From positions 320,001 through 384,000 of the forward strand of contig JANZKC010000002.1 in NCBI GenBank assembly GCA_025061115.1: a stretch of DNA of 64,000 bases, in the 5' to 3' direction. Positions 18,027 to 26,623 of this stretch are shown here, in pieces. The stretch is from Candidatus Culexmicrobium cathedralense (lineage in GTDB: Archaea; Thermoproteota; Methanomethylicia; Culexarchaeales; Culexmicrobiaceae). The notes under the pieces were generated by a model. That model saw only the letters and a list, made by a program, of their open reading frames with translations. It made no database searches and was not told where the DNA came from. Position numbers and translations under genes: made by a program. Position 1 is the first letter of the stretch, and every line of letters starts with the position of its first letter.

Positions 18027-19109
18027 ATGAAGATACTTTTATGGGATGAAAAAGCAGGCTTAATGAAGCTGCGTGTTGAAAATCAAGATGATCTATGGGC
18101 ACTCTACAATATAATAGAGGAAGGAGACATAGTTTACGCCAAAACTACAAGAGAGCTAAAGGTTGGAAACAGCAGCATGAGAAAGCCCATGATCCTGGGA
18201 ATTAAGGTGAAGAAACTCGAGTTCCAGCCATTTACGGAGAGACTGAGAGTAAGAGGAGTGATAATCCATGAGCCAGAAAAATACAAGGAAAGAGGACTAA
18301 GAGGAAGCCACCACACAATAAACTTAGACATCGGTGGAGAAATAGCCATCATCAAAGAAAAGTGGCCGAAGCACGCTATCGATAGAATTAGGGAAGCATG
18401 CAGAAAAACAAAGCTTGGAGTAGTAATCCTATCCATAGATGACGAGGAAGCAGCAATAGCCATAATCAGAGACTACGGCGTAGAAATAATCTCAGAAATA
18501 GCTCTAAGACTCCCGGGAAAAATGGAGGCAGACAAGAGATACTTAGCATTAAGGGAAAAAATTAAGGAAGTCACGAAGGCAGTTAAGAGCACAATAAAGA
18601 ATACGTCATCCACAATATTAATAGTAGCAGGCCCCAGCTACATGCGAGAAAAAGTTGCAGCTGCTCTAGAGAAGGAGTACTCAGGAAAATCAGACAAACC
18701 AAAAATATATCAAGAAAACACCTCAAATGGAGGAGTTAGAGGAATCTACGAAGCAATACGTAGAGGATCAATAACTAAAGCCGTCAGCGAGCATGGAATA
18801 ATTGAAGAAACAAAACTAATGGCCCAATTCCTGAAGTTACTCTCAAAAAACGAAAACATGGTGACTTATGGACTAAATGAAGTTAAAGACGCAGCCAAAG
18901 CAGGAGCCATAAAAGCGCTCCTAGTTCTCGATGAAATGCTACACTCATATGGAGAAGTTAGAGAGAAAATTGAAGAAATAATAAAGGATGTCGAACGGAA
19001 AGGCGGAAAAATAAAGATTTTTAGCTCAATACATGAAGCAGGACGCCAACTAAAGTCCTTGGGAGGAGTAGCCGCAATATTAAGATTTAAAGTAAGAAAT
19101 AAACAGTAA
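18027..19109 (+). CDS. pelA: Pelota/Dom34 ribosome rescue factor
   Basis: DDLWALYN, FQPFTERLRVRG, HHT, LPGK, YG..EV..A...GAI, L..LGGVAAILRF. Confidence 0.96.
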   Translation: MKILLWDEKAGLMKLRVENQDDLWALYNIIEEGDIVYAKTTRELKVGNSSMRKPMILGIKVKKLEFQPFTERLRVRGVIIHEPEKYKERGLRGSHHTINLDIGGEIAIIKEKWPKHAIDRIREACRKTKLGVVILSIDDEEAAIAIIRDYGVEIISEIALRLPGKMEADKRYLALREKIKEVTKAVKSTIKNTSSTILIVAGPSYMREKVAAALEKEYSGKSDKPKIYQENTSNGGVRGIYEAIRRGSITKAVSEHGIIEETKLMAQFLKLLSKNENMVTYGLNEVKDAAKAGAIKALLVLDEMLHSYGEVREKIEEIIKDVERKGGKIKIFSSIHEAGRQLKSLGGVAAILRFKVRNKQ

Positions 19110-19470: not shown

Positions 19471-20616
19471 GTGGTTAGAGTGGAATGGAGAGAATGCCCA
19501 TCATATAGGAAGTATGTCAAGGCAATAGACGAAAACTGCGCCAAGATAATCAGTGCACTAAATAAAATCAAGTCCAGAAATCTATCTCTCATAGCTAGAG
19601 AGACAGGCATGCCTCCAGCCTTAGTTCACTACTACTACGATAAGCTTGCAAGAAGAGGAATAATCAAGTTAAAGGCGATTTTCAACTTCAATAAGCTTGG
19701 ACTAACACCAGTATTGCTAATGGCAAAAGTACCTCACAACCTAGCTGACAAAGCATGTGAAAAGCTAAAGGTAAACGACTATTGGAGAACATTAATAAAA
19801 AGCTATACGTCGGAAGACGTCTACTGCTACGGCATGTACACAATACCGCAGGGAATGGAAAGGAAATTTGAAGAATTCGCAGAGCAGCTCAAGCGTTACA
19901 AGCTAATCGAAAGCGTTAAACTATACTGGAATCCTGAAAGAATTTGCCCTAACTCCAACTTCCAATGGTTTAACTCTAAAGCAAAGAAATGGGAATTCCA
20001 TTGGAAGGCATGGATCGAGGAAGTATCAAAACTTCTTGAAGAGAAGAGAAAGTACCAAGTTGAAAGAGAGGAGGAAAAGGAAGTTCTAGTACCCCTTGAC
20101 GACACAGACATATTCATAATTAGAAAGTTAGAGGAAGACGCGGAAATAACATTTAAAGAGCTAGCTGCAATTCTTGAAGTCACACCTCCAACAATAAGGT
20201 ACCACTACTATAAGCACATCGTAAATTACGGCGTGCTCATTGGCTACGAGCCAGAGCTATATCCATATCCAAAGCAGTTTTCAAGGCGCGTAATTGTTAA
20301 CTTGAAATTCTCAAATACCAAGACATTGTGGGTGTTTCTAAAGTCACTTGAAAATAAGCCATTCACCCAGCAGCTATTCCTCCATAGAAAAGACTTAACG
20401 GCAATAATGAAAGCATACTTAATGCTAGATCAAGTCATAGGGTTTGCAAAGGCCCTATCGGAACTTACAGGCATGGGCGTTATTGCCAAATACACGTATT
20501 CAATCGTCGATCCGAGCGAATACTGGACCAACCTACTTCCAGTGCAATTATACGTTAAGGGAAAGTGGAAATATCAGCATGAGGAGTATATGAGTAAAGT
20601 AGCTAAAGTCGAATAA
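19471..20616 (+). CDS. Lrp/AsnC-like transcription regulator with two wHTH modules
   Basis: N-terminal RNLSLIARETGMP..LV.Y and internal LDDTDIFII..LE.DA...FKELA..L.VTPPTIRYHY HTH-like segments. Confidence 0.8.
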   Translation: MVRVEWRECPSYRKYVKAIDENCAKIISALNKIKSRNLSLIARETGMPPALVHYYYDKLARRGIIKLKAIFNFNKLGLTPVLLMAKVPHNLADKACEKLKVNDYWRTLIKSYTSEDVYCYGMYTIPQGMERKFEEFAEQLKRYKLIESVKLYWNPERICPNSNFQWFNSKAKKWEFHWKAWIEEVSKLLEEKRKYQVEREEEKEVLVPLDDTDIFIIRKLEEDAEITFKELAAILEVTPPTIRYHYYKHIVNYGVLIGYEPELYPYPKQFSRRVIVNLKFSNTKTLWVFLKSLENKPFTQQLFLHRKDLTAIMKAYLMLDQVIGFAKALSELTGMGVIAKYTYSIVDPSEYWTNLLPVQLYVKGKWKYQHEEYMSKVAKVE

Positions 20617-20617
20617 T

Positions 20618-21265
20618 ATGAACAATAAAGCACATACTTTTTTTAAGATAAAAATCTATGAATGGTGGAAAAGCAATAAGAGAGAATTTCCATGGAGAAA
20701 ACGTCAAAGCGCTTGGAAAATCTTGATCACATCAATTCTACTTAGAAAGACAAATGCAGAGAAGGTAGCTAAGTACTACGATGAAATTCTTGGCAAATTA
20801 GGGACTCCAATCAACACCTATAACTTAAAATTAAGCGAAATAGAAGAGCTGCTGAAACCTCTTGGGCTGCATAGAAGCAGGGCAAAGCAATTGAAGAAGG
20901 CAGCTGAAATTATCCTCAAAAAGTACGGCGGAAAAATGCCGACAAGCTTCAATGAACTACTAAAAATCCCCGGAGTAGGGAAGTACGCTGCATCTGCAAT
21001 TCTAAGCATTGCATATGGCAAAAACATTCCAGTAGTGGACATTAATGTCGAGCGCGTAATTTCAAGATTTTTCGGCGTACAAAAACCGACGTATGAAGAA
21101 GCATCAAAGATAATTATGGAAATAGCTGGTGAAGATGAAGCTCCAAAGCTTAGCCTAGCCATAATCGACTTTGCGGCTAAAGTATGCAGAGCCCGAAATC
21201 CAACCTGCAGAAGCTGTCCATTAAATTCAAAATGCAAATTCAATCCGCAAAACCAAAAATTTTAA
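20618..21265 (+). CDS. HhH-GPD DNA glycosylase with 4Fe-4S cluster (Mig/MutY-like)
   Basis: KREFPWR, ILLRKT (Mig-like LLRxT), HhH LLKIPGVGKYAA, VVDINV.RV, Cx6Cx2Cx5C. Confidence 0.88.
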   Translation: MNNKAHTFFKIKIYEWWKSNKREFPWRKRQSAWKILITSILLRKTNAEKVAKYYDEILGKLGTPINTYNLKLSEIEELLKPLGLHRSRAKQLKKAAEIILKKYGGKMPTSFNELLKIPGVGKYAASAILSIAYGKNIPVVDINVERVISRFFGVQKPTYEEASKIIMEIAGEDEAPKLSLAIIDFAAKVCRARNPTCRSCPLNSKCKFNPQNQKF

Positions 21266-21305
21266 GGGTTGAAAAATTTCACTCTCGGTAGAGGAGGCAC
21301 AAGTA

Positions 21306-21476
21306 ATGAGCATTAGAAAAGCTCTTGAAGAGGAAGAAGAAGAGTGGTGGGAAGAGCTGGAGGAGGAAGAAGAGGAGGAAGAGGAAGAATGGCTTGAAGA
21401 AGACTGGGAAGAGTACGAGGAGTGGCCTGAAGAGGAGTGGGAGGAAGACTGGGAAGAAGAGGAAGAGGAGTGGTAA
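21306..21476 (+). CDS. Glu/Trp-rich 56-aa microprotein (absent from ORF track)
   Basis: GAGGAGG SD at 21291-21297, ATG, double stop TAA TAG; MSIRKALEEEEEEWWEELEEEEEEEEEEWLEEDWEEYEEWPEEEWEEDWEEEEEEW; GAA and GAG codons are mixed. Confidence 0.75.
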   Translation: MSIRKALEEEEEEWWEELEEEEEEEEEEWLEEDWEEYEEWPEEEWEEDWEEEEEEW

Positions 21477-21622
21477 TAGGCAGTAAGTAGAGCCCAATGC
21501 CTAAATGCCTACTAATAACTAAGCTATTTATCTAAATAAATTTTTAAATAAATAGTAATTGCTTAATTGCTGAAACACTTAGCTAAAGCATCACTTCTGC
21601 CAACATAAATTAAGTAAGTTAG

Positions 21623-23836
21623 CTATCTAGGCAGAAAGTCCTCTGGACGCGGAATTTCTGGAGGCAATCCCTTTCTCCGCCTAATTTGGCGAATTATTTC
21701 CATGGCTAATTGCGCTGGCACTGGAGCCCATCTTGAAAACTCAGTGCTCCAGAAGCATCTTCCCTGAGTCGCACTTCTAATTTGATCCGCCAGGTCAAAG
21801 GTCTCGGAAACCGGTATTTCCCCTTTAACAAGCATTAGCATTCCATGTTGCTCAATTTGATGTACCCTGCCCCTCTTAGAAGATAACACTCGGAGAAATC
21901 CGCTGAGAAATTCTTGAGGCACCTTAGCTTCTATCTTCAGCAATGGCTCCAACAATATTGGGTTAGCCATTAAGAAGGCAGCGAAAATTGCATCCTTCGT
22001 AGCAGGCATTATCTGAGCGGGACCTCTATGAGCAGGATCCTCGTGAACCATAGCATCAACAAGCTTGACCTTAACTCCCCTTATAGGCTCTTGGCAAAGT
22101 GGCCCTGCCTCCATAGCCCACCTAAATCCAGCAATTATGGTGTCCTTAATATCCCTCAAGTACTGAACACCTTTAGTCACATCTATGAGGATATTTAAGT
22201 GCTGATCAATAGCCCAAATGCCTCGAGCCTCCTCAGCACTCCATCCAGCCTCAGATCTGAGAAGCTTAGCTCTTGTTCGCCAATCTTGATCTTCATAAAC
22301 TCGCCCATCTGAAAGAAGCTTCAAAGTCTTTTCATCAAGAGGTTCAATTGAAATGTAAATGCGATTATGCTTGTTCGGCGATTTACCCTCAACAGGTCCA
22401 GCCACGCCCTTAATGCTCTCCCTATAAACGACTATAGGCGGAGAAGTTTCTATTGGTATCCCACCAGTTCTCTGCTGCAAATCCCACAATGCAATTTCAA
22501 GGTGCAGCGTACCCATACCGCTAATTAAGTACTCGCCTGTCTCCTCATTAATTTTAACTTGAAGCGTGGGATCCTCGATTGCCATTTTACGAAGAGTCTC
22601 AACCAGCTTTGGCAGGTCGCTACTTCTTTTAGGCTCAATTGCAATCGTAACTACAGGCTCGCTAATATATTTCAATCTCTCAAATGGAACCATTACATCT
22701 TTAAACTTGACATCTACGATTGTCTCTCCAGCTCTCGCCCTGTCAAGCCCCAGCAAAGCCACTATATTTCCAGCGCTAATTTCATTTGCAATTTCACGGT
22801 AAGGCCCCATATAGAGCCCTACTTGCTGAACTCTACCAGGGCTTCGAGCCATTAATAGGTAAACTTCATCTCCATTATGGACCGTGCCGCTGAAGACTCT
22901 ACCTGTAGCAACTAATCCAGCATGAGGATCAATCACTATCTTGCTAATACAAACTACTAGAGGCCCATTAGGATCGCACTCAAGCATGGCTTTTCCAATC
23001 TCACTATCAAGATCACCAGGCCAAAGCTTCGGTATCCTATATCTTTGAGCCTCACGCGGATTCGGAATATGCTCAACTACCATGTTTAGTATAGCCTCAT
23101 AAAGTGGAAACTCTTTTGCCAGCTCCTCGACTCCTTCAGGCCCACGACTATAAGCGTCAACTATATCGCTAAACTTCAAGCCTTCACGCTGAACAATAGG
23201 TATAGTTACGCCCCACTTATGCAGTGCTGAACCAAAAGCCACTTGACCCTTAGCAGGATTTATCTTCCACTTATTCTTAAACTCAGGCTCGGCATACATG
23301 TCTATTAGTGCATTAAAGTCTCTGATGATCTCCATAAGCCTCTGCTGAACCTCAGCTGGAGATAGGCGAAGCTCCTTAATCAACCTATCAATCTTATTTA
23401 TATACAGTAGAGGGCGAACTCGCTCCTCAAGACCCTGCCTAACCACAGTTTCAGTCTGCGTCATCACTCCTTCAACAGCATCCACAACAACTATCGCTCC
23501 ATCCATGACTCTTAATGAGCGAGTAACATGGCCAGTAAAGTCAACGTGGCCAGGAGTATCTACAAGGTTTATCACGTAAGGCTTACCATTCCACTCGTGG
23601 TAGAGCGAAACGTTAGCCGCTTTAACAGTCATCTGCCTCATCTGCTCGATAGGAACGTAGTCAAGGGCAAGCGCTTTTCCAGCAACCTTAGGTGAAATCA
23701 TCCCTGCAGCCATCAGTAGGGAATCAGACAAAGTTGTCTTGCCGTGATCTACGTGAGCAAGAGTACCTATATTACGTACTTGCTCAATATTACTCATCAA
23801 CTTCAGCACGTGCTCAGTAGTCTTGAACTTAACCAT
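21623..23836 (-). CDS. fusA: Translation elongation factor aEF-2
   Basis: AHVDHGKTT, DTPGHVDF, NKID, GMGTLHLEI, EGKSPNKHN, diphthamide loop HRGPAQI. Confidence 0.98.
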   Translation of the reverse strand: MVKFKTTEHVLKLMSNIEQVRNIGTLAHVDHGKTTLSDSLLMAAGMISPKVAGKALALDYVPIEQMRQMTVKAANVSLYHEWNGKPYVINLVDTPGHVDFTGHVTRSLRVMDGAIVVVDAVEGVMTQTETVVRQGLEERVRPLLYINKIDRLIKELRLSPAEVQQRLMEIIRDFNALIDMYAEPEFKNKWKINPAKGQVAFGSALHKWGVTIPIVQREGLKFSDIVDAYSRGPEGVEELAKEFPLYEAILNMVVEHIPNPREAQRYRIPKLWPGDLDSEIGKAMLECDPNGPLVVCISKIVIDPHAGLVATGRVFSGTVHNGDEVYLLMARSPGRVQQVGLYMGPYREIANEISAGNIVALLGLDRARAGETIVDVKFKDVMVPFERLKYISEPVVTIAIEPKRSSDLPKLVETLRKMAIEDPTLQVKINEETGEYLISGMGTLHLEIALWDLQQRTGGIPIETSPPIVVYRESIKGVAGPVEGKSPNKHNRIYISIEPLDEKTLKLLSDGRVYEDQDWRTRAKLLRSEAGWSAEEARGIWAIDQHLNILIDVTKGVQYLRDIKDTIIAGFRWAMEAGPLCQEPIRGVKVKLVDAMVHEDPAHRGPAQIMPATKDAIFAAFLMANPILLEPLLKIEAKVPQEFLSGFLRVLSSKRGRVHQIEQHGMLMLVKGEIPVSETFDLADQIRSATQGRCFWSTEFSRWAPVPAQLAMEIIRQIRRRKGLPPEIPRPEDFLPR

Positions 23837-25151: not shown

Positions 25152-25253
25152 ATGTCGAAACCTGAAGAAAAGTGGCTGGACATCGAAATTGAAGAGGAAG
25201 AATGGACAGAAGACGAAGAATGGGAAGAAGCAGAAGAAGAGGCAGAAGAGTAA
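25152..25253 (+). CDS. Glu/Trp-rich 33-aa microprotein (absent from ORF track)
   Basis: GGGGGAG SD-like sequence, ATG; MSKPEEKWLDIEIEEEEWTEDEEWEEAEEEAEE then TAA. Confidence 0.65.
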   Translation: MSKPEEKWLDIEIEEEEWTEDEEWEEAEEEAEE

Positions 25254-25342: not shown

Positions 25343-26623
25343 ATGTACGACGCAATCGTAGTTGGAGCCGGAATCATAGGGCTCTCAACAGCATACCACA
25401 TAAAAAAGAAGAACCCAAATCAAAAAGTTCTTGTAATTGAAAAGGAAAGCGCACCTGGTTTTGGCGCCACAGGCAAGTGCGCTGGCTGCTTTCAAGGATT
25501 CTTCACATCAAGCACAAGCACAAAGCTAGCCGGATCTTCAATAAGATTTTATTGGACGCTTCAAAGCCGCTTTGGCTATAACTTAAAAATGCGCTGGCTA
25601 GGATTCCTCTGGCTACTAAATGAAGAGCAGTTCAAACAAGTTAAAGGAGCTTTAAGCAACATGCGAGGAGCTGAGGGAGAATACGAGCTCATAGACGCAA
25701 ATAAATTGGCTAAGCAGCTAAAAGTAAGAATCAAAGTTTCAACCGCGCAAGACGCTGCAATCATAGGCTTGCAGGACATCTATGTTGGACTTCTCGCCAA
25801 ATACGCAGGCACACTAGATGTAGATGCTCTCTTAAAGTTCTATGAAAGGGAATTCATCAAGCTTGGAGGAGAAGTCAAGTACGATTGCAAAGTCGACAGC
25901 ATAGTCATTGAGCCGCGCAATCCCCTGAACATAAATGGCGAACCACTATATTGGCAGGAAAAGGAAGTTACAGGCGTAAAAGTGGGCGCAAAAACTTTAC
26001 GCGCCAAAAAGACCATAATCGCTGCAGGCGGCTGGATGCAGCAGCTACTAGATGAAATAGGCGTTGATGCGCTCATCAGGCCGCTGAAAAAGAGCATATT
26101 CGTAATTAAAGCTAACAATGAGGAGCTGAAGAAAGTTCTCCACGCAAAAGGATTTAATAATGAAGGCTACATGCCATTCACAATAATTCCCCACCCGGAA
26201 GTTTACATTAAACCTGAAGTAGATGAAGAGTCGTTCTGGATAGGCCACGGACTAACATTTGGAATGCCATTCAAAATTGAGGAAGAGTATTTACCCGACA
26301 TGAAGCTTTATGAAAGAGGCATCTATCCAATACTGACAAGCTATTTCCCCCAATTCAAAGACGCTAGACCCATTAATGCGTGGTCATCAATATATGAAGT
26401 CACTACAGTGGATAGGCAGCCAATAATATTCGAAGAAAACAACCTAATTGCCGTAGGAGGAGGAAGCGGCTACGGCTTAATGAAGGCAGATGCGATAGGG
26501 AGGATAGCTGCAGCAGTATACTACGAAGAAGAATGGGCTCAACTCTTCGGAAATGTAAAGTTCAAGTGCGCAGACTTAAGCATCAAATGCAGAAAAGTGG
26601 AGCCTGAGCTCTTCACACTATAA
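25343..26623 (+). CDS. FAD-dependent oxidoreductase (DAO / sarcosine oxidase beta-like)
   Basis: VVGAGIIGLSTAYH Rossmann motif, GATGK, IIAAGGW, D.QPII, GSGYGLM. Confidence 0.88.
   Translation: MYDAIVVGAGIIGLSTAYHIKKKNPNQKVLVIEKESAPGFGATGKCAGCFQGFFTSSTSTKLAGSSIRFYWTLQSRFGYNLKMRWLGFLWLLNEEQFKQVKGALSNMRGAEGEYELIDANKLAKQLKVRIKVSTAQDAAIIGLQDIYVGLLAKYAGTLDVDALLKFYEREFIKLGGEVKYDCKVDSIVIEPRNPLNINGEPLYWQEKEVTGVKVGAKTLRAKKTIIAAGGWMQQLLDEIGVDALIRPLKKSIFVIKANNEELKKVLHAKGFNNEGYMPFTIIPHPEVYIKPEVDEESFWIGHGLTFGMPFKIEEEYLPDMKLYERGIYPILTSYFPQFKDARPINAWSSIYEVTTVDRQPIIFEENNLIAVGGGSGYGLMKADAIGRIAAAVYYEEEWAQLFGNVKFKCADLSIKCRKVEPELFTL

Follow-up and report, generated by a model that had tools for sequence, protein, structure and literature searches.

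A 56-codon open reading frame of Candidatus Culexmicrobium cathedralense, composed almost entirely of glutamate and tryptophan, probably codes for a member of a family of microproteins that spans the Thermoproteota, is previously undescribed and is linked by gene neighbourhood to the ribosome-recycling ATPase ABCE1. We estimate at about one half the probability of our best reading, in which the family would be translated into trans-acting polyanionic peptides, anchored by a tryptophan and tied through a partner to ribosome recycling. All archaea and eukaryotes possess ABCE1, an essential protein that splits and recycles ribosomes, and the partners it has in archaea are believed to be known. 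Yet a gene conserved beside it in Bathyarchaeia, in Methanomethylicia-type lineages, in Desulfurococcales and in Sulfolobales has apparently been overlooked, short low-complexity ORFs of this kind being discarded by gene callers and homology tools.

The micro-ORF and its conservation in the Culexmicrobium family

The window, i.e. the whole stretch of 64,000 nucleotides that was analysed (contig JANZKC010000002.1, positions 320,001 to 384,000), contains the micro-ORF in the following setting, in window coordinates.

19471..20616 (+): 381-aa protein with two winged-helix (AsnC/Lrp-type) HTH regions (Pfam HTH_24/HTH_AsnC)
20618..21265 (+): HhH-GPD base-excision glycosylase (Pfam PF00730, 66 bits), ending 40 nt 5' of the micro-ORF ATG
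21255..21268 (+): A-rich/TATA-like box AAAAATTTTAAGGG, 38-51 nt 5' of the ATG, overlapping the glycosylase stop codon
21291..21297 (+): Shine-Dalgarno sequence GAGGAGG, 8 nt 5' of the ATG at 21306
21306..21476 (+): coding sequence of the Glu/Trp microprotein, 56 codons, TAA at 21474-21476 included (ORF reading, synteny with G001-G004)
21477..21479 (+): second in-frame stop TAG, directly after the TAA
21623..23836 (-): elongation factor 2 (EF-2), convergent on the micro-ORF (Pfam GTP_EFTU, EFG_III, EFG_IV, EFG_C)

Re-reading of the DNA bore out the description given in the initial annotation: the Shine-Dalgarno sequence, the ATG and the double stop bound a peptide of 56 residues with 35 Glu, 2 Asp and 8 Trp, the Glu codons (18 GAA, 17 GAG) are irregularly mixed so that the regularity resides in the protein, and both motifs quoted from the peptide, LEEDWEEYEEWPEEEW and WEEDWEE, are present. 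Its place 40 nt after the Lrp-like/glycosylase pair and convergent with EF-2 was likewise confirmed by Pfam and by the coordinates. The coding part proper (21306-21473) adds 3 Leu and one residue each of Met, Ser, Ile, Arg, Lys, Ala, Tyr and Pro, with neither Gly nor Cys, which gives a net charge of about -35 from the sequence. The peptide opens with a short head, MSIRKAL, of basic or hydrophobic character; one Trp per 4-14 residues and a single Trp-Pro follow, and the C-terminus is EEEEEEW directly before the TAA. Tandem Repeats Finder returned only weak and short arrays, with periods that are multiples of 3 and scores of 32-57, and the micro-ORF is therefore not a clean microsatellite. With a threshold of at least 25 Glu per 56-residue stretch, it is the sole place in the six frames of the 1.98-Mb genome (maximum 35). 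An Rfam scan of 20900-21900 gave nothing but a sub-threshold sR23 match inside EF-2.

The EF-2 gene lies 143 nt past the second stop, and no same-strand gene lies downstream of the micro-ORF in the window. A Pelota gene is found 2.2 kb upstream, so that regulator, glycosylase, EF-2 and Pelota all lie within 3 kb. The genome of the window (G000) was compared with all four other genomes of its family (f1), namely G001, which is a congener, and G002-G004. The AsnC/Lrp-type regulator lies upstream of the micro-ORF in 5/5 genomes, and the tail-to-tail arrangement with EF-2 is also found in 5/5, against 0/25 EF-2 loci in the other families of the class. Between regulator and micro-ORF, the glycosylase gene is present in G000, G001 and G003, and missing in G002 and G004 (the latter with an N-gap). 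The box AAAAATTTAA(A)GG is nevertheless kept at equal distance in all five, G002 included, and the regulatory tie to the adjacent glycosylase that had been suggested finds no support in this distribution. This promoter-like box would serve as the promoter of the micro-ORF. The Shine-Dalgarno equivalents occupy the same place (GAGGAGG in G003 and G004, GAGGGGG in G001, GGAGG in G002). The second stop is not conserved, the relatives having a single one.

Syntenic ORFs of 51-55 aa were found in all four relatives, with the frame and the Trp/Pro motifs kept: every one has EEWW[ED]EL, EEWPEEE and a terminal ...EEEEEW-stop. The objection that syntenic homologues might be missing falls away because 4/4 relatives possess them. 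Aligned codon by codon, G000 and G001 agree at 27 codons and show 21 synonymous and 3 non-synonymous differences, in addition to three whole-codon indels; the order of all 8 Trp, of Pro and Tyr and of 2 of the 3 Leu is kept, the third Leu being replaced by Ile. Judging from these aligned codons, purifying selection is shown to act on the amino-acid sequence of the microprotein.

The ORF might be no functional gene at all: the convergent genes may simply flank a low-complexity, purine-rich (GAR)n tract that is open by chance. Such a tract would fit the run search, which listed no RNA sequencing run containing the stretch, the lack of an exact copy in a collection of 15 billion proteins, the weak period-3n arrays and the antisense frames, which are open as well, a by-product of the GAR repeats. 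It is made very unlikely by the start codon, Shine-Dalgarno sequence and promoter-like box conserved in 5/5 genomes, by indels that are whole codons only among G000-G004, by the substitution pattern and residue order just described, and by the persistence of the same peptide type across the phylum. Four DNA runs also bear on it: a contig of an independent study spans the whole queried stretch with the ORF intact and 2 differences, one of which, at 21580, is outside the ORF. Other pieces from the DNA runs align with the Glu/Trp 3' part alone and come from micro-ORFs of other organisms, and one run has 3- and 6-base length variants in that part. The 56-aa Glu/Trp ORF is thus very probably a real protein-coding gene.

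Two other readings of the same DNA were set aside. A basic ORF in the +1 frame (53 aa, Lys/Arg-rich) was rejected, its frame being broken in G001, G003 and G004 and its start having no Shine-Dalgarno sequence. A role at the RNA level, as a GGAGG-rich 'anti-SD sponge', does not agree with GAA/GAG positions that vary freely, nor with AT-rich members that use mostly GAA.

The peptide had also been likened to eukaryotic Sem1/DSS1, and the resemblance in acidic/aromatic spacing concerns one stretch only. A homologue of Sem1/DSS1 is scarcely credible: the Pfam-A hmmscan of the peptide gave 0 families at E<=10, a six-frame search of the whole genome with PF05160 gave no match at E<=10 (1 candidate scored), and phmmer against 177,635 distinct PDB sequences gave 0 at E<=10, a test that the composition correction of HMMER may blunt. 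The stretch LEEDWEEYEEW occurs only in G000 and G001; G002-G004 read WEEEW or WLEEEWEEEW, with Tyr missing in all three and L-E-E-D-W missing in G002, and the family consensus owes nothing to it.

A microprotein family across the Thermoproteota

A phmmer-type genome search with the microprotein matched only G000 and G001 among 41 genomes. Because it missed three syntenic orthologues, the family was located by DNA patterns and synteny, with the reversed pattern as a control; composition dominates any HMMER-type score for such low-complexity peptides. In the phylum, 155 of 401 genomes contain the EEEEW-stop pattern and 12 contain its reversed control (counted from the table). In the class, the EEEEW+stop/W DNA pattern occurs in 31 of 62 genomes, and the reversed control gave 5 matches. 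Per taxonomic family, presence is nearly all-or-none (23/23, 21/25 and 13/16 vs 0/56, 0/24 and 0/17).

The consensus of the family reads M-x(2-8)-[ED/W]n-E(3-7)-W-stop, and the window microprotein fits it: members have 18-56 aa, with a short non-acidic head, then Glu/Asp with spaced Trp/Phe, and the ending E(3-7)-Trp-stop. The majority are no more than 18-25 aa long, and their acidic run begins at residue 3-5. The relocated forms have basic heads of 7-9 residues, MSIRKAL here and MSRKKKPPK in family f25. The family nearly always ends in Glu-Glu-Glu-Trp, a regularity that is due in part to search patterns that required the terminal Trp; in the genomes missed by the patterns, a small unbiased sample, the ORFs upstream of ABCE1 end in ...LEEEW, ...DWEEEW, ...WEEEW and ...DEDEEW. 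A Trp-Pro-Glu motif is specific to the class, as WPEEE in 5/5 genomes of f1 and as WP[ED] in all 13 f5 rows of the microprotein alignment, and is not found in its f9 row. The window 56-mer probably belongs to this ABCE1-linked family, a homology that is founded on shared motifs (the WPE of the class, the terminal Glu run with Trp) and on complementary distribution, not on statistics.

The Glu/Trp tail is not confined to free peptides. A sister family has it attached to a LysW-like zinc ribbon (PF21344 29.3 bits, cut-off 27; NF041070 38.6 bits, below the cut-off of 75; FYDLN_acid PF09538 26.7 bits vs a cut-off of 23.9), whose public name is 'FYDLN acid domain-containing protein [Candidatus Culexarchaeum yellowstonense]'. 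It is also carried by two proteins of ~110 aa, the relatives of which are named hypothetical proteins of Pyrobaculum islandicum. The zinc-ribbon fusion raises the question of whether the acidic tail acts as in LysW/ArgW, i.e. as a swinging arm or as the substrate of an ATP-grasp ligase, LysW tails being acidic and having a Trp within their terminal EDWGE (PMC10433800, in the sections available). For the window ORF this is highly improbable: it has no zinc ribbon, its terminal residue is Trp and not the substrate-carrying Glu of LysW, and G000 has no PF21344 match above the cut-off.

Pfam and NCBIfam, run on 9 and 7 members, assigned no family, the only match being a weak BRCT_2 (E=0.19) in one fusion protein. 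The homologous-protein search with the window peptide scored 4 candidates, none at E<=10. In the collection of 15 billion proteins, 0/9 stand-alone family members are present; therefore, gene callers do not report such ORFs. The ESM Atlas contains the window peptide letter for letter and gave no lead, the scores of the nearest clusters (0.82-0.84) being at chance level. No description of such a peptide turned up in the main text of the open-access articles searched, nor any family record. Pattern-plus-synteny searches can thus recover microprotein families that are invisible to profile methods.

Linkage to ABCE1 and proposed mode of action

Gene neighbourhood, and gene neighbourhood alone, links the family to ABCE1. 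Across the phylum, ABCE1 lies downstream of the micro-ORF in 26/30 loci. In two sister families, a TFS-like zinc-ribbon gene stands between the micro-ORF and the ABCE1 gene downstream at 21/21 loci; within the class to which this genome belongs, the TFS-like gene, led by a Shine-Dalgarno sequence, follows 25-45 nt after the micro-ORF, an operon-like order. Of 80 named loci surveyed, 73 hold the micro-ORF and 65 are assessable for ABCE1 (8 are not). ABCE1 is downstream on the same strand in 56 of these 65, at <=300 nt in 44 and at 301-2000 nt in 12; of the other loci, 5 have ABCE1 on the opposite strand and 4 have none within 2 kb or more. The two genes carry separate signals in Bathyarchaeia: a TATA-like box and GGAGGTGA for the micro-ORF, whose stop is followed by a T-rich tract, and TTTATAA ~30 nt before the ATG for ABCE1. 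The position beside ABCE1 is the usual one for the family, and probably the ancestral one.

The micro-ORF of the window is not adjacent to ABCE1, which in G000 is ~118 kb away on the same contig, and no acidic ORF was found upstream of the TFS-like/ABCE1 genes in G000 and G002. Because the genome has no copy adjoining ABCE1, we read the micro-ORF of this order, tail-to-tail with EF-2, as a putative relocated member of the family. An ABCE1-adjacent copy is likewise absent in the examined genomes of other lineages with a copy elsewhere (f3 1/1, f25 3/3, f19 4/4, f38 1/1 and f16 1/1). The micro-ORF moves as a unit and is retained in every examined genome of six relocated lineages. Its new neighbours vary, being a TFB-like gene in f25 and, in 6 of 7 f19 loci, a SAM-decarboxylase-like gene that the micro-ORF precedes.

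The main rival to our best reading is a sensor at the level of translation, in which the act of translating the ORF matters and the peptide, once released, does not. The ribosome would be destabilised or stalled by a nascent chain with a poly-acidic N-terminus, the outcome would depend on recycling capacity or on conditions that stabilise ribosomes, and the expression of the neighbouring gene, mostly ABCE1, would be set by attenuation, re-initiation or mRNA fate. Such a sensor accounts well for members of 18-25 aa, whose whole chain would remain in the exit tunnel, for the 56/65 loci that are same-strand upstream of ABCE1, for the operon-like order with the TFS-like gene, for the T-rich tract of Bathyarchaeia and for the gene that follows in f19. 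It also agrees with the intrinsic ribosome destabilisation by N-terminal acidic runs, as it is presented in the accessible parts of PMC12673854, PMC11162784 and PMC9718836.

We consider this sensor possible, at odds that are clearly unfavourable. Action in trans is favoured because the window micro-ORF has no same-strand gene downstream, because the relocated lineages, G000 and G002 among them, have no acidic ORF at ABCE1, because 5 loci are divergent from ABCE1, because micro-ORF and ABCE1 of Bathyarchaeia each have their own TATA-like box, with a T-rich tract after the micro-ORF, and because two lineages carry the tail joined to folded domains. The same points speak against the sensor, as does the retention of the gene as a unit after relocation. 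Furthermore, the position-specific conservation of Trp, Gly, Pro and the terminal Trp exceeds the needs of a merely acidic chain, and the basic heads of the relocated forms look like adaptations for the production of a peptide. On balance, the microprotein rather probably works in trans, as a peptide.

The peptide might alternatively be a general polycation buffer or chaperone, its Glu and Trp binding polyamines, Mg2+ or basic (ribosomal, chromatin) proteins non-specifically and with no partner in recycling. Glu and Trp are the usual make-up of polyamine-binding sites. The extreme composition and charge suit this role, as do the varying neighbours (EF-2 here, the SAM-decarboxylase-like gene, of the polyamine pathway, in f19 and the TFB-like gene in f25) and two further acidic/Trp micro-ORFs in G000. 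This role is unlikely, given an invariant terminal Trp right before the stop, which points to a specific docking site, and a tight ABCE1 linkage over at least 3 classes, which points to a specific relationship. As to the two further micro-ORFs of G000, the strict start-region pattern had no match for them in G001-G004, and synteny located one.

In the trans-acting reading that we prefer, the microprotein would be an almost purely polyanionic and probably disordered peptide, with a free C-terminal Trp obligatory after the Glu run. The Glu run would lie along a basic surface of a component of the termination/recycling apparatus, a pocket of that component would receive the C-terminal Trp together with its carboxylate, and the peptide would tune or chaperone it. 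The first candidate partner would be ABCE1, or its ribosome-bound or maturing form. That ABCE1 or the recycling complex is the direct partner is a tentative proposal. Complex prediction with the G000 ABCE1 (28-row alignment) and the microprotein (24-row alignment) scored 0.00 in both runs, which speaks neither for nor against it. Against the preferred reading count, among other points, the run search that listed no RNA run, the 0/9 members present in the protein collection and a neighbour that differs in other lineages (SAM-decarboxylase-like in f19). Furthermore, very short ORFs with a poly-acidic N-terminus are described as destabilising ribosomes (PMC12673854, PMC11162784), and for the members of 18-25 aa this fits a role at the translation level at least as naturally.

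Thermoproteota is an archaeal phylum near the eukaryotic stem. A bolder version of the preferred reading, with the microprotein as a dedicated archaeal cofactor of ABCE1 whose C-terminal Trp is a docking 'ticket', and hence a counterpart or forerunner of Lto1 or else a new ribosome-splitting factor, appears decidedly unlikely. Either mechanism, a polyanionic ligand in trans or a poly-acidic ORF acting as a sentinel for ribosome stability, would open a new way into the tuning of archaeal recycling. In the window, an odd low-complexity tract has turned out to be what we take for a relocated family member, and its function can be tested there apart from ABCE1.

Comparison with known systems

Sem1/DSS1 is, as the microprotein, small, acidic, Trp-containing and presumably disordered; it differs in that no profile or sequence match was found and in that its defining stretch is unconserved among the archaeal orthologues. 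The partners of Sem1/DSS1 (proteasome lid, BRCA2) are eukaryotic.

LysW/ArgW and FYDLN_acid proteins combine a zinc ribbon with an acidic tail, which is the architecture of the sister-family version. The window peptide, in contrast, has no Cys4 zinc ribbon and no Pfam match, PF09538 with its FYDLN motif included, and it does not have the EDWGE with terminal Glu that the available text of PMC10433800 gives for LysW.

Leader ORFs subject to intrinsic ribosome destabilisation (IRD) share with the micro-ORF an N-terminal acidic run in a very short ORF before a ribosome-homeostasis gene. In the portions available of PMC12673854, PMC11162784 and PMC9718836, consecutive acidic residues in the N-terminal region lead to IRD, which needs dedicated small-subunit recycling, and in E. 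coli two ABC ATPases that bind the ribosome, EttA and YbiT, relieve IRD. The differences are that the window ORF has no downstream gene, that specific Trp, Pro and terminal residues are conserved, and that the tail is also found in fusions.

The tail of the P-stalk protein aP1 is similarly a flexible acidic run that ends in a hydrophobic/aromatic anchor, and it recruits translational GTPases and ABCE1 (PMC6125642, from the part available). The initial annotation had raised the alternative that the peptide may bind EF-2 in the manner of such a tail; the neighbours of the microprotein gene, ABCE1 in the phylum and EF-2 here, are clients of the stalk. The only PF00428 match of G000 is at C4:41991-42257, and its aP1 tail ends in ...EEIAEGLAALFG (also ...KEEASEEEIAEGLAALFG; ...EGLAALFG). 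The microprotein, unlike aP1, is a free peptide that lacks both the PF00428 domain and an L-x-x-L-F or GLxxLFG-type motif.

Archaea are not known to possess a Cia1/Met18 complex. PF01883 (DUF59, Cia2-type) is present in 118/131 genomes, and its co-occurrence with the micro-ORF showed no correlation (carriers f11 0/3, f29 0/2 and f25 2/5; non-carrier f10 16/16), a result that argues only against one particular receptor. Measured against the signal [LIM]-[DES]-[WF]-COO- of the CIA machinery (PMC10245660, in part), the microprotein fits with Trp at -1 and Glu at -2, and has Glu at -3 instead of Leu, Ile or Met. The deca-GX3 motif described for Lto1 in the accessible part of PMC4523923 is absent from the microprotein, which has no Gly. 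According to the same part, it is through its conserved C-terminal Trp that Lto1 brings in the Fe-S targeting complex, and it does so specifically for Rli1; in the CIA 'TCR' signal the aromatic side chain and the free carboxylate dominate binding (available parts of PMC10245660 and of the preprint 10.64898/2026.04.06.716496). The likeness is in the terminus itself: Lto1 presents an acidic-Trp-COO- end on a factor dedicated to ABCE1/Rli1, and here a family of E-W-COO- peptides is encoded beside ABCE1.

The Glu/Trp micro-ORF beside EF-2

Direct reading of the window confirmed the Shine-Dalgarno sequence, ATG, 56 codons, double stop and Glu/Trp composition described in the initial annotation. The features are as follows.

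21291-21297, + strand, Shine-Dalgarno GAGGAGG, 8 nt 5' of the ATG
21306-21473, + strand, micro-ORF coding region, ATG at 21306, 56 codons, then TAA and TAG
21623-23836, - strand, EF-2

The predicted peptide starts with MSIRKAL, and the following 49 residues comprise 35 Glu, 2 Asp, 8 Trp, 2 Leu, 1 Tyr and 1 Pro. The Glu codons (18 GAA and 17 GAG) are mixed in no order, and Tandem Repeats Finder reported only short, weak arrays of period 3n. The ORF starts 40 nt after the end of the HhH-GPD glycosylase gene and is convergent with EF-2 on the other strand. Across the 1.98-Mb genome, read in six frames, no other site reaches 25 Glu per 56-residue stretch, and the ORF was found unbroken in one contig of an independent study.

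In a comparison of EF-2 3' ends across 30 genomes of the window's class, a short Glu/Trp ORF tail-to-tail with EF-2 was present in 5/5 genomes of the window's family (its own genome G000, the congener G001, and G002-G004) compared with 0/25 other loci, one of which ends at a contig edge. Syntenic homologues preserving the frame and the Trp/Pro order, a point on which the initial annotation could be checked, are thus present in G001-G004. These four orthologues, of 51-55 aa, share the motif order EEWW[ED]EL ... W ... WPEEE ... W and the C-terminus EEEEEW-stop. Comparison with G001 shows 27 identical codons, 21 synonymous and 3 non-synonymous differences, and each of the three indels is whole-codon. 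With ~12 synonymous and ~140 non-synonymous sites, estimated by arithmetic, the synonymous sites are close to saturated and the protein has hardly changed, with the caveat that the residue alignment within poly-Glu is arbitrary. A box AAAAATTTAA(A)GG, ~40-50 nt 5' of the start codon, and a GGAGG-type Shine-Dalgarno sequence occur in 5/5 family genomes; G002 keeps both although no glycosylase gene separates the upstream regulator from the ORF. In 3/4 relatives the +1 frame, which is rich in Lys/Arg, is interrupted, and GAR repeats account for the open antisense frames. As judged from sequence comparison, the micro-ORF behaves as a gene.

The peptide had also been interpreted as Sem1/DSS1-like. 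No Pfam family matched it at E<=10, PF05160 gave no match at E<=10 in a six-frame search of the genome, and phmmer found no match among all PDB chains. Among the five family genomes, the resembling stretch is restricted to G000 and G001 and is not kept in G002-G004. This interpretation was therefore wrong, and the Sem1/DSS1 identity was dropped.

Two further acidic/Trp micro-ORFs were observed in this genome.

25152-25253, + strand, second micro-ORF, 33 aa, MSKPEEKWLDIEIEEEEWTEDEEWEEAEEEAEE, GGGGGAG before the ATG
G000:C3:7645-7761 (contig C3; = locus L054:1501-1617), - strand, third micro-ORF, 38 aa, MSKWKEKWDYEEEEEEELEDWEEEEWDEELEEEEEEEW, with an E-run and a Trp end

The second precedes, by 90 nt, a gene for a FAD-dependent oxidoreductase (25343-26623), and its syntenic orthologues in G002, G003 and G004 end in ...EEEAEE; as it ends in Glu, not Trp, it belongs to a different small family. 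The third, downstream of a thioredoxin-reductase-like/GNAT fusion gene, was not found in G001-G004 with a strict start pattern.

A phylum-wide family and its linkage to ABCE1

A phmmer-type genome search with the peptide recovered only 1/4 orthologues, so DNA patterns for the C-terminus were used instead, EEE(E)W and then a stop or another Trp, with the reversed pattern as control. In the class, the pattern was present in 31/62 genomes versus 5 control matches, and in the phylum sample in 155/401 genomes versus 12 genomes with control matches (our own count). The distribution per taxonomic family is nearly all-or-none, 23/23, 21/25, 13/16 and 7/8 versus 0/56, 0/24, 0/17, 0/17 and 0/12. The underlying ORFs encode 18-56 aa, for example MIFEEEDEWEEGEDEEWEEEEW, MPEEEEWEEEEWEEEEWEEEEW and MYHLELDEDFEEDWTEEEFEEEEWPEEEEEEWPEEEEDFEEEEW, and most genomes hold one match, some up to three. 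Named carriers among the matches listed are Bathyarchaeia, Desulfurococcales (Ignisphaera, Pyrodictiaceae, Thermogladius), one Sulfolobales MAG and a few others. Among the 80 named loci of the matches listed, 7 failed the Glu/Trp micro-ORF filter, including L199, a genuine member truncated where the locus begins. Nine stand-alone members were absent from a 15-billion-protein collection, the window peptide is present in the ESM Atlas, and such peptides were not found in the main texts of the open-access papers searched.

Within the window's class, two families show, in 21/21 loci, first the micro-ORF, then a ~100-aa RPB9/TFS-type zinc-ribbon gene and then the gene of the ribosome-splitting ATPase ABCE1 (NF009945, 544 bits). 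ABCE1 was downstream of the micro-ORF in 26/30 phylum loci.

Position of ABCE1 relative to 73 micro-ORFs of the 80 named loci, among the matches listed
Same strand, <=300 nt downstream: 44/73
Same strand, 301-2000 nt downstream: 12/73
Opposite strand: 5/73
None within 2 kb or more: 4/73
Not assessable: 8/73

As a control for circularity, regions upstream of ABCE1 were inspected in genomes missed by the pattern. Glu/Trp ORFs were present there in 2/2 genomes of family f15, 2/3 of f27 and one each of f4, f7, f8, f36 and an f5 genus, with the C-termini ...LEEEW, ...DWEEEW, ...WEEEW, ...EEDEEW and ...DEDEEW; the terminal Trp is therefore no artefact of the pattern. Fifteen genomes of eight other families had no Glu/Trp ORF within 1.5 kb upstream of ABCE1, so the family is absent or unrecognisable in part of the phylum.

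Both in the window's class and in loci of Desulfurococcales type, the gene immediately before ABCE1 encodes the ~100-aa zinc-ribbon protein (PF02150, 34-37 bits).

L088:1548-1850, + strand, zinc-ribbon protein in a compared locus
G000:C2:223091-223351, - strand, zinc-ribbon protein on contig C2 of the window's genome

It has an RPB9/TFS-type N-terminal ribbon, a basic middle and an acidic tail, no TFIIS-type C-terminal ribbon, and scores under the cut-offs of the TFS and TFS4 profiles. In family f24 (G098:C11:378086-378544 and other genomes), the ABCE1-like match lies in a ~785-926-aa open frame and starts from query residue 18-54; a long extension or fusion appears to be present at the N-terminus of this ABCE1.

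Members away from ABCE1

The TFS-like and ABCE1 genes of G000 are on the same contig, ~118 kb from the micro-ORF, with no acidic ORF upstream of them, and likewise in G002. The sister family has no Glu/Trp ORF at ABCE1; it encodes a fusion protein of 85-93 aa, with a LysW-like zinc ribbon and a long Glu/Trp tail that ends in EEEEEW, present in public records for Candidatus Culexarchaeum yellowstonense. Family f25 carries MSRKKKPPKEEEE...W as a stand-alone gene, with no such ORF at ABCE1 (3/3 genomes). In f19, MPIWYYREEEEWEEEEELWEEFEEEWEEEEEW precedes a SAM-decarboxylase-like gene by 130-250 nt in 6/7 loci (L293-L297, L306, L308), and no Glu/Trp ORF was found at ABCE1 in 4/4 genomes. The same complementarity, a copy elsewhere and none at ABCE1, holds for f38 and f16. 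We read the micro-ORF as usually single-copy, with an ancestral place beside ABCE1 and several moves. On this reading, the window's ORF has been relocated and belongs to a Glu/Trp microprotein family, apparently undescribed, that spans the phylum and is linked to ABCE1, kinship across the phylum being based on motifs and synteny, not on statistics.

In the window's family, the micro-ORF would have come to lie between a regulator operon and EF-2, lengthening to 51-56 aa with a basic head.

18027-19109, + strand, Pelota (TIGR00111, 265 bits)
19471-20616, + strand, two-HTH regulator, 381 aa, GTG start, upstream of the micro-ORF

Pelota and EF-2 flank the regulator/glycosylase/micro-ORF block, each within 2.5 kb, which places the relocated micro-ORF in a small cluster of genes for translation rescue and elongation. 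The regulator has a 33%-identical paralogue at G000:C1:358614-359711.

The f19 SAM-decarboxylase-like gene (motif ESHISIHTWPE) and an aconitase-like gene, upstream on the other strand in 5/7 loci, were named by sequence reading, not by family search. One f19 genome also encodes two ~110-aa proteins in which an uncharacterised N-domain with Cys is followed by a Glu/Trp tail, ...EEEEELWEEFEEEWEQEDEWEEEWEEEEEW; their relatives are 'hypothetical proteins' of Pyrobaculum islandicum (Pisl_1178, Pisl_1275). Together with the Culexarchaeum record, this name identifies the phylum as Thermoproteota.

L305:1680-2033, + strand, first tail protein
L307:2047-2424, - strand, second tail protein

Outside Thermoproteota, a Cys-rich zinc-finger-like protein of Candidatus Hadarchaeota archaeon (L168) ends in ...EAEEDYWGWEEEEW, so tails of this kind may be attached to folded domains in another phylum too.

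Possible modes of action

Two proposals were considered. The product could be a trans-acting peptide, which we favour for the window's own ORF with a probability of about 0.5, or the ORF could act as a translation-level sensor, which is less probable for the window's ORF. According to PMC12673854, PMC11162784 and PMC9718836, a run of acidic residues close to the N-terminus makes ribosomes unstable during translation, and this calls for special small-subunit recycling, with relief in E. coli by ribosome-binding ABC ATPases. An 18-25-aa poly-acidic ORF before a recycling ATPase gene fits this picture well, and the arrangement is operon-like in the window's class; for the short ABCE1-adjacent members, the odds of the two proposals are closer. 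Action in trans is favoured by the lack of a gene downstream of the micro-ORF in the window, by its relocation without loss and by the 5 loci divergent from ABCE1 among the matches listed. In Bathyarchaeia, the micro-ORF and ABCE1 each have their own promoter-like box, and a T-rich tract lies between the two genes. The Glu/Trp tail behind folded domains in two lineages points the same way, as do the position-specific Trp, Gly and Pro residues and the terminal Trp, always directly before the stop.

A trans-acting peptide of this design, an acidic run and an aromatic last residue whose carboxylate is free, would resemble several known docking tails. The P-stalk tail is reported to dock on translational GTPases and ABCE1 (PMC6125642), and the EDWGE motif of LysW on LysX (PMC10433800). 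In membership tests the peptide fits neither the P-stalk nor the LysW family. For the Lto1 signal [LIM]-[DES]-[WF], the Glu-Trp end agrees and the Glu at position -3 does not, and the peptide has no deca-GX3 motif; no co-occurrence of a DUF59/Cia2-type domain with the micro-ORF was found. Among the tails compared, the most pointed parallel to the Trp end is Lto1, whose C-terminal Trp is described, in PMC4523923, PMC10245660 and the preprint 10.64898/2026.04.06.716496, as recruiting the Fe-S machinery specifically for ABCE1/Rli1.
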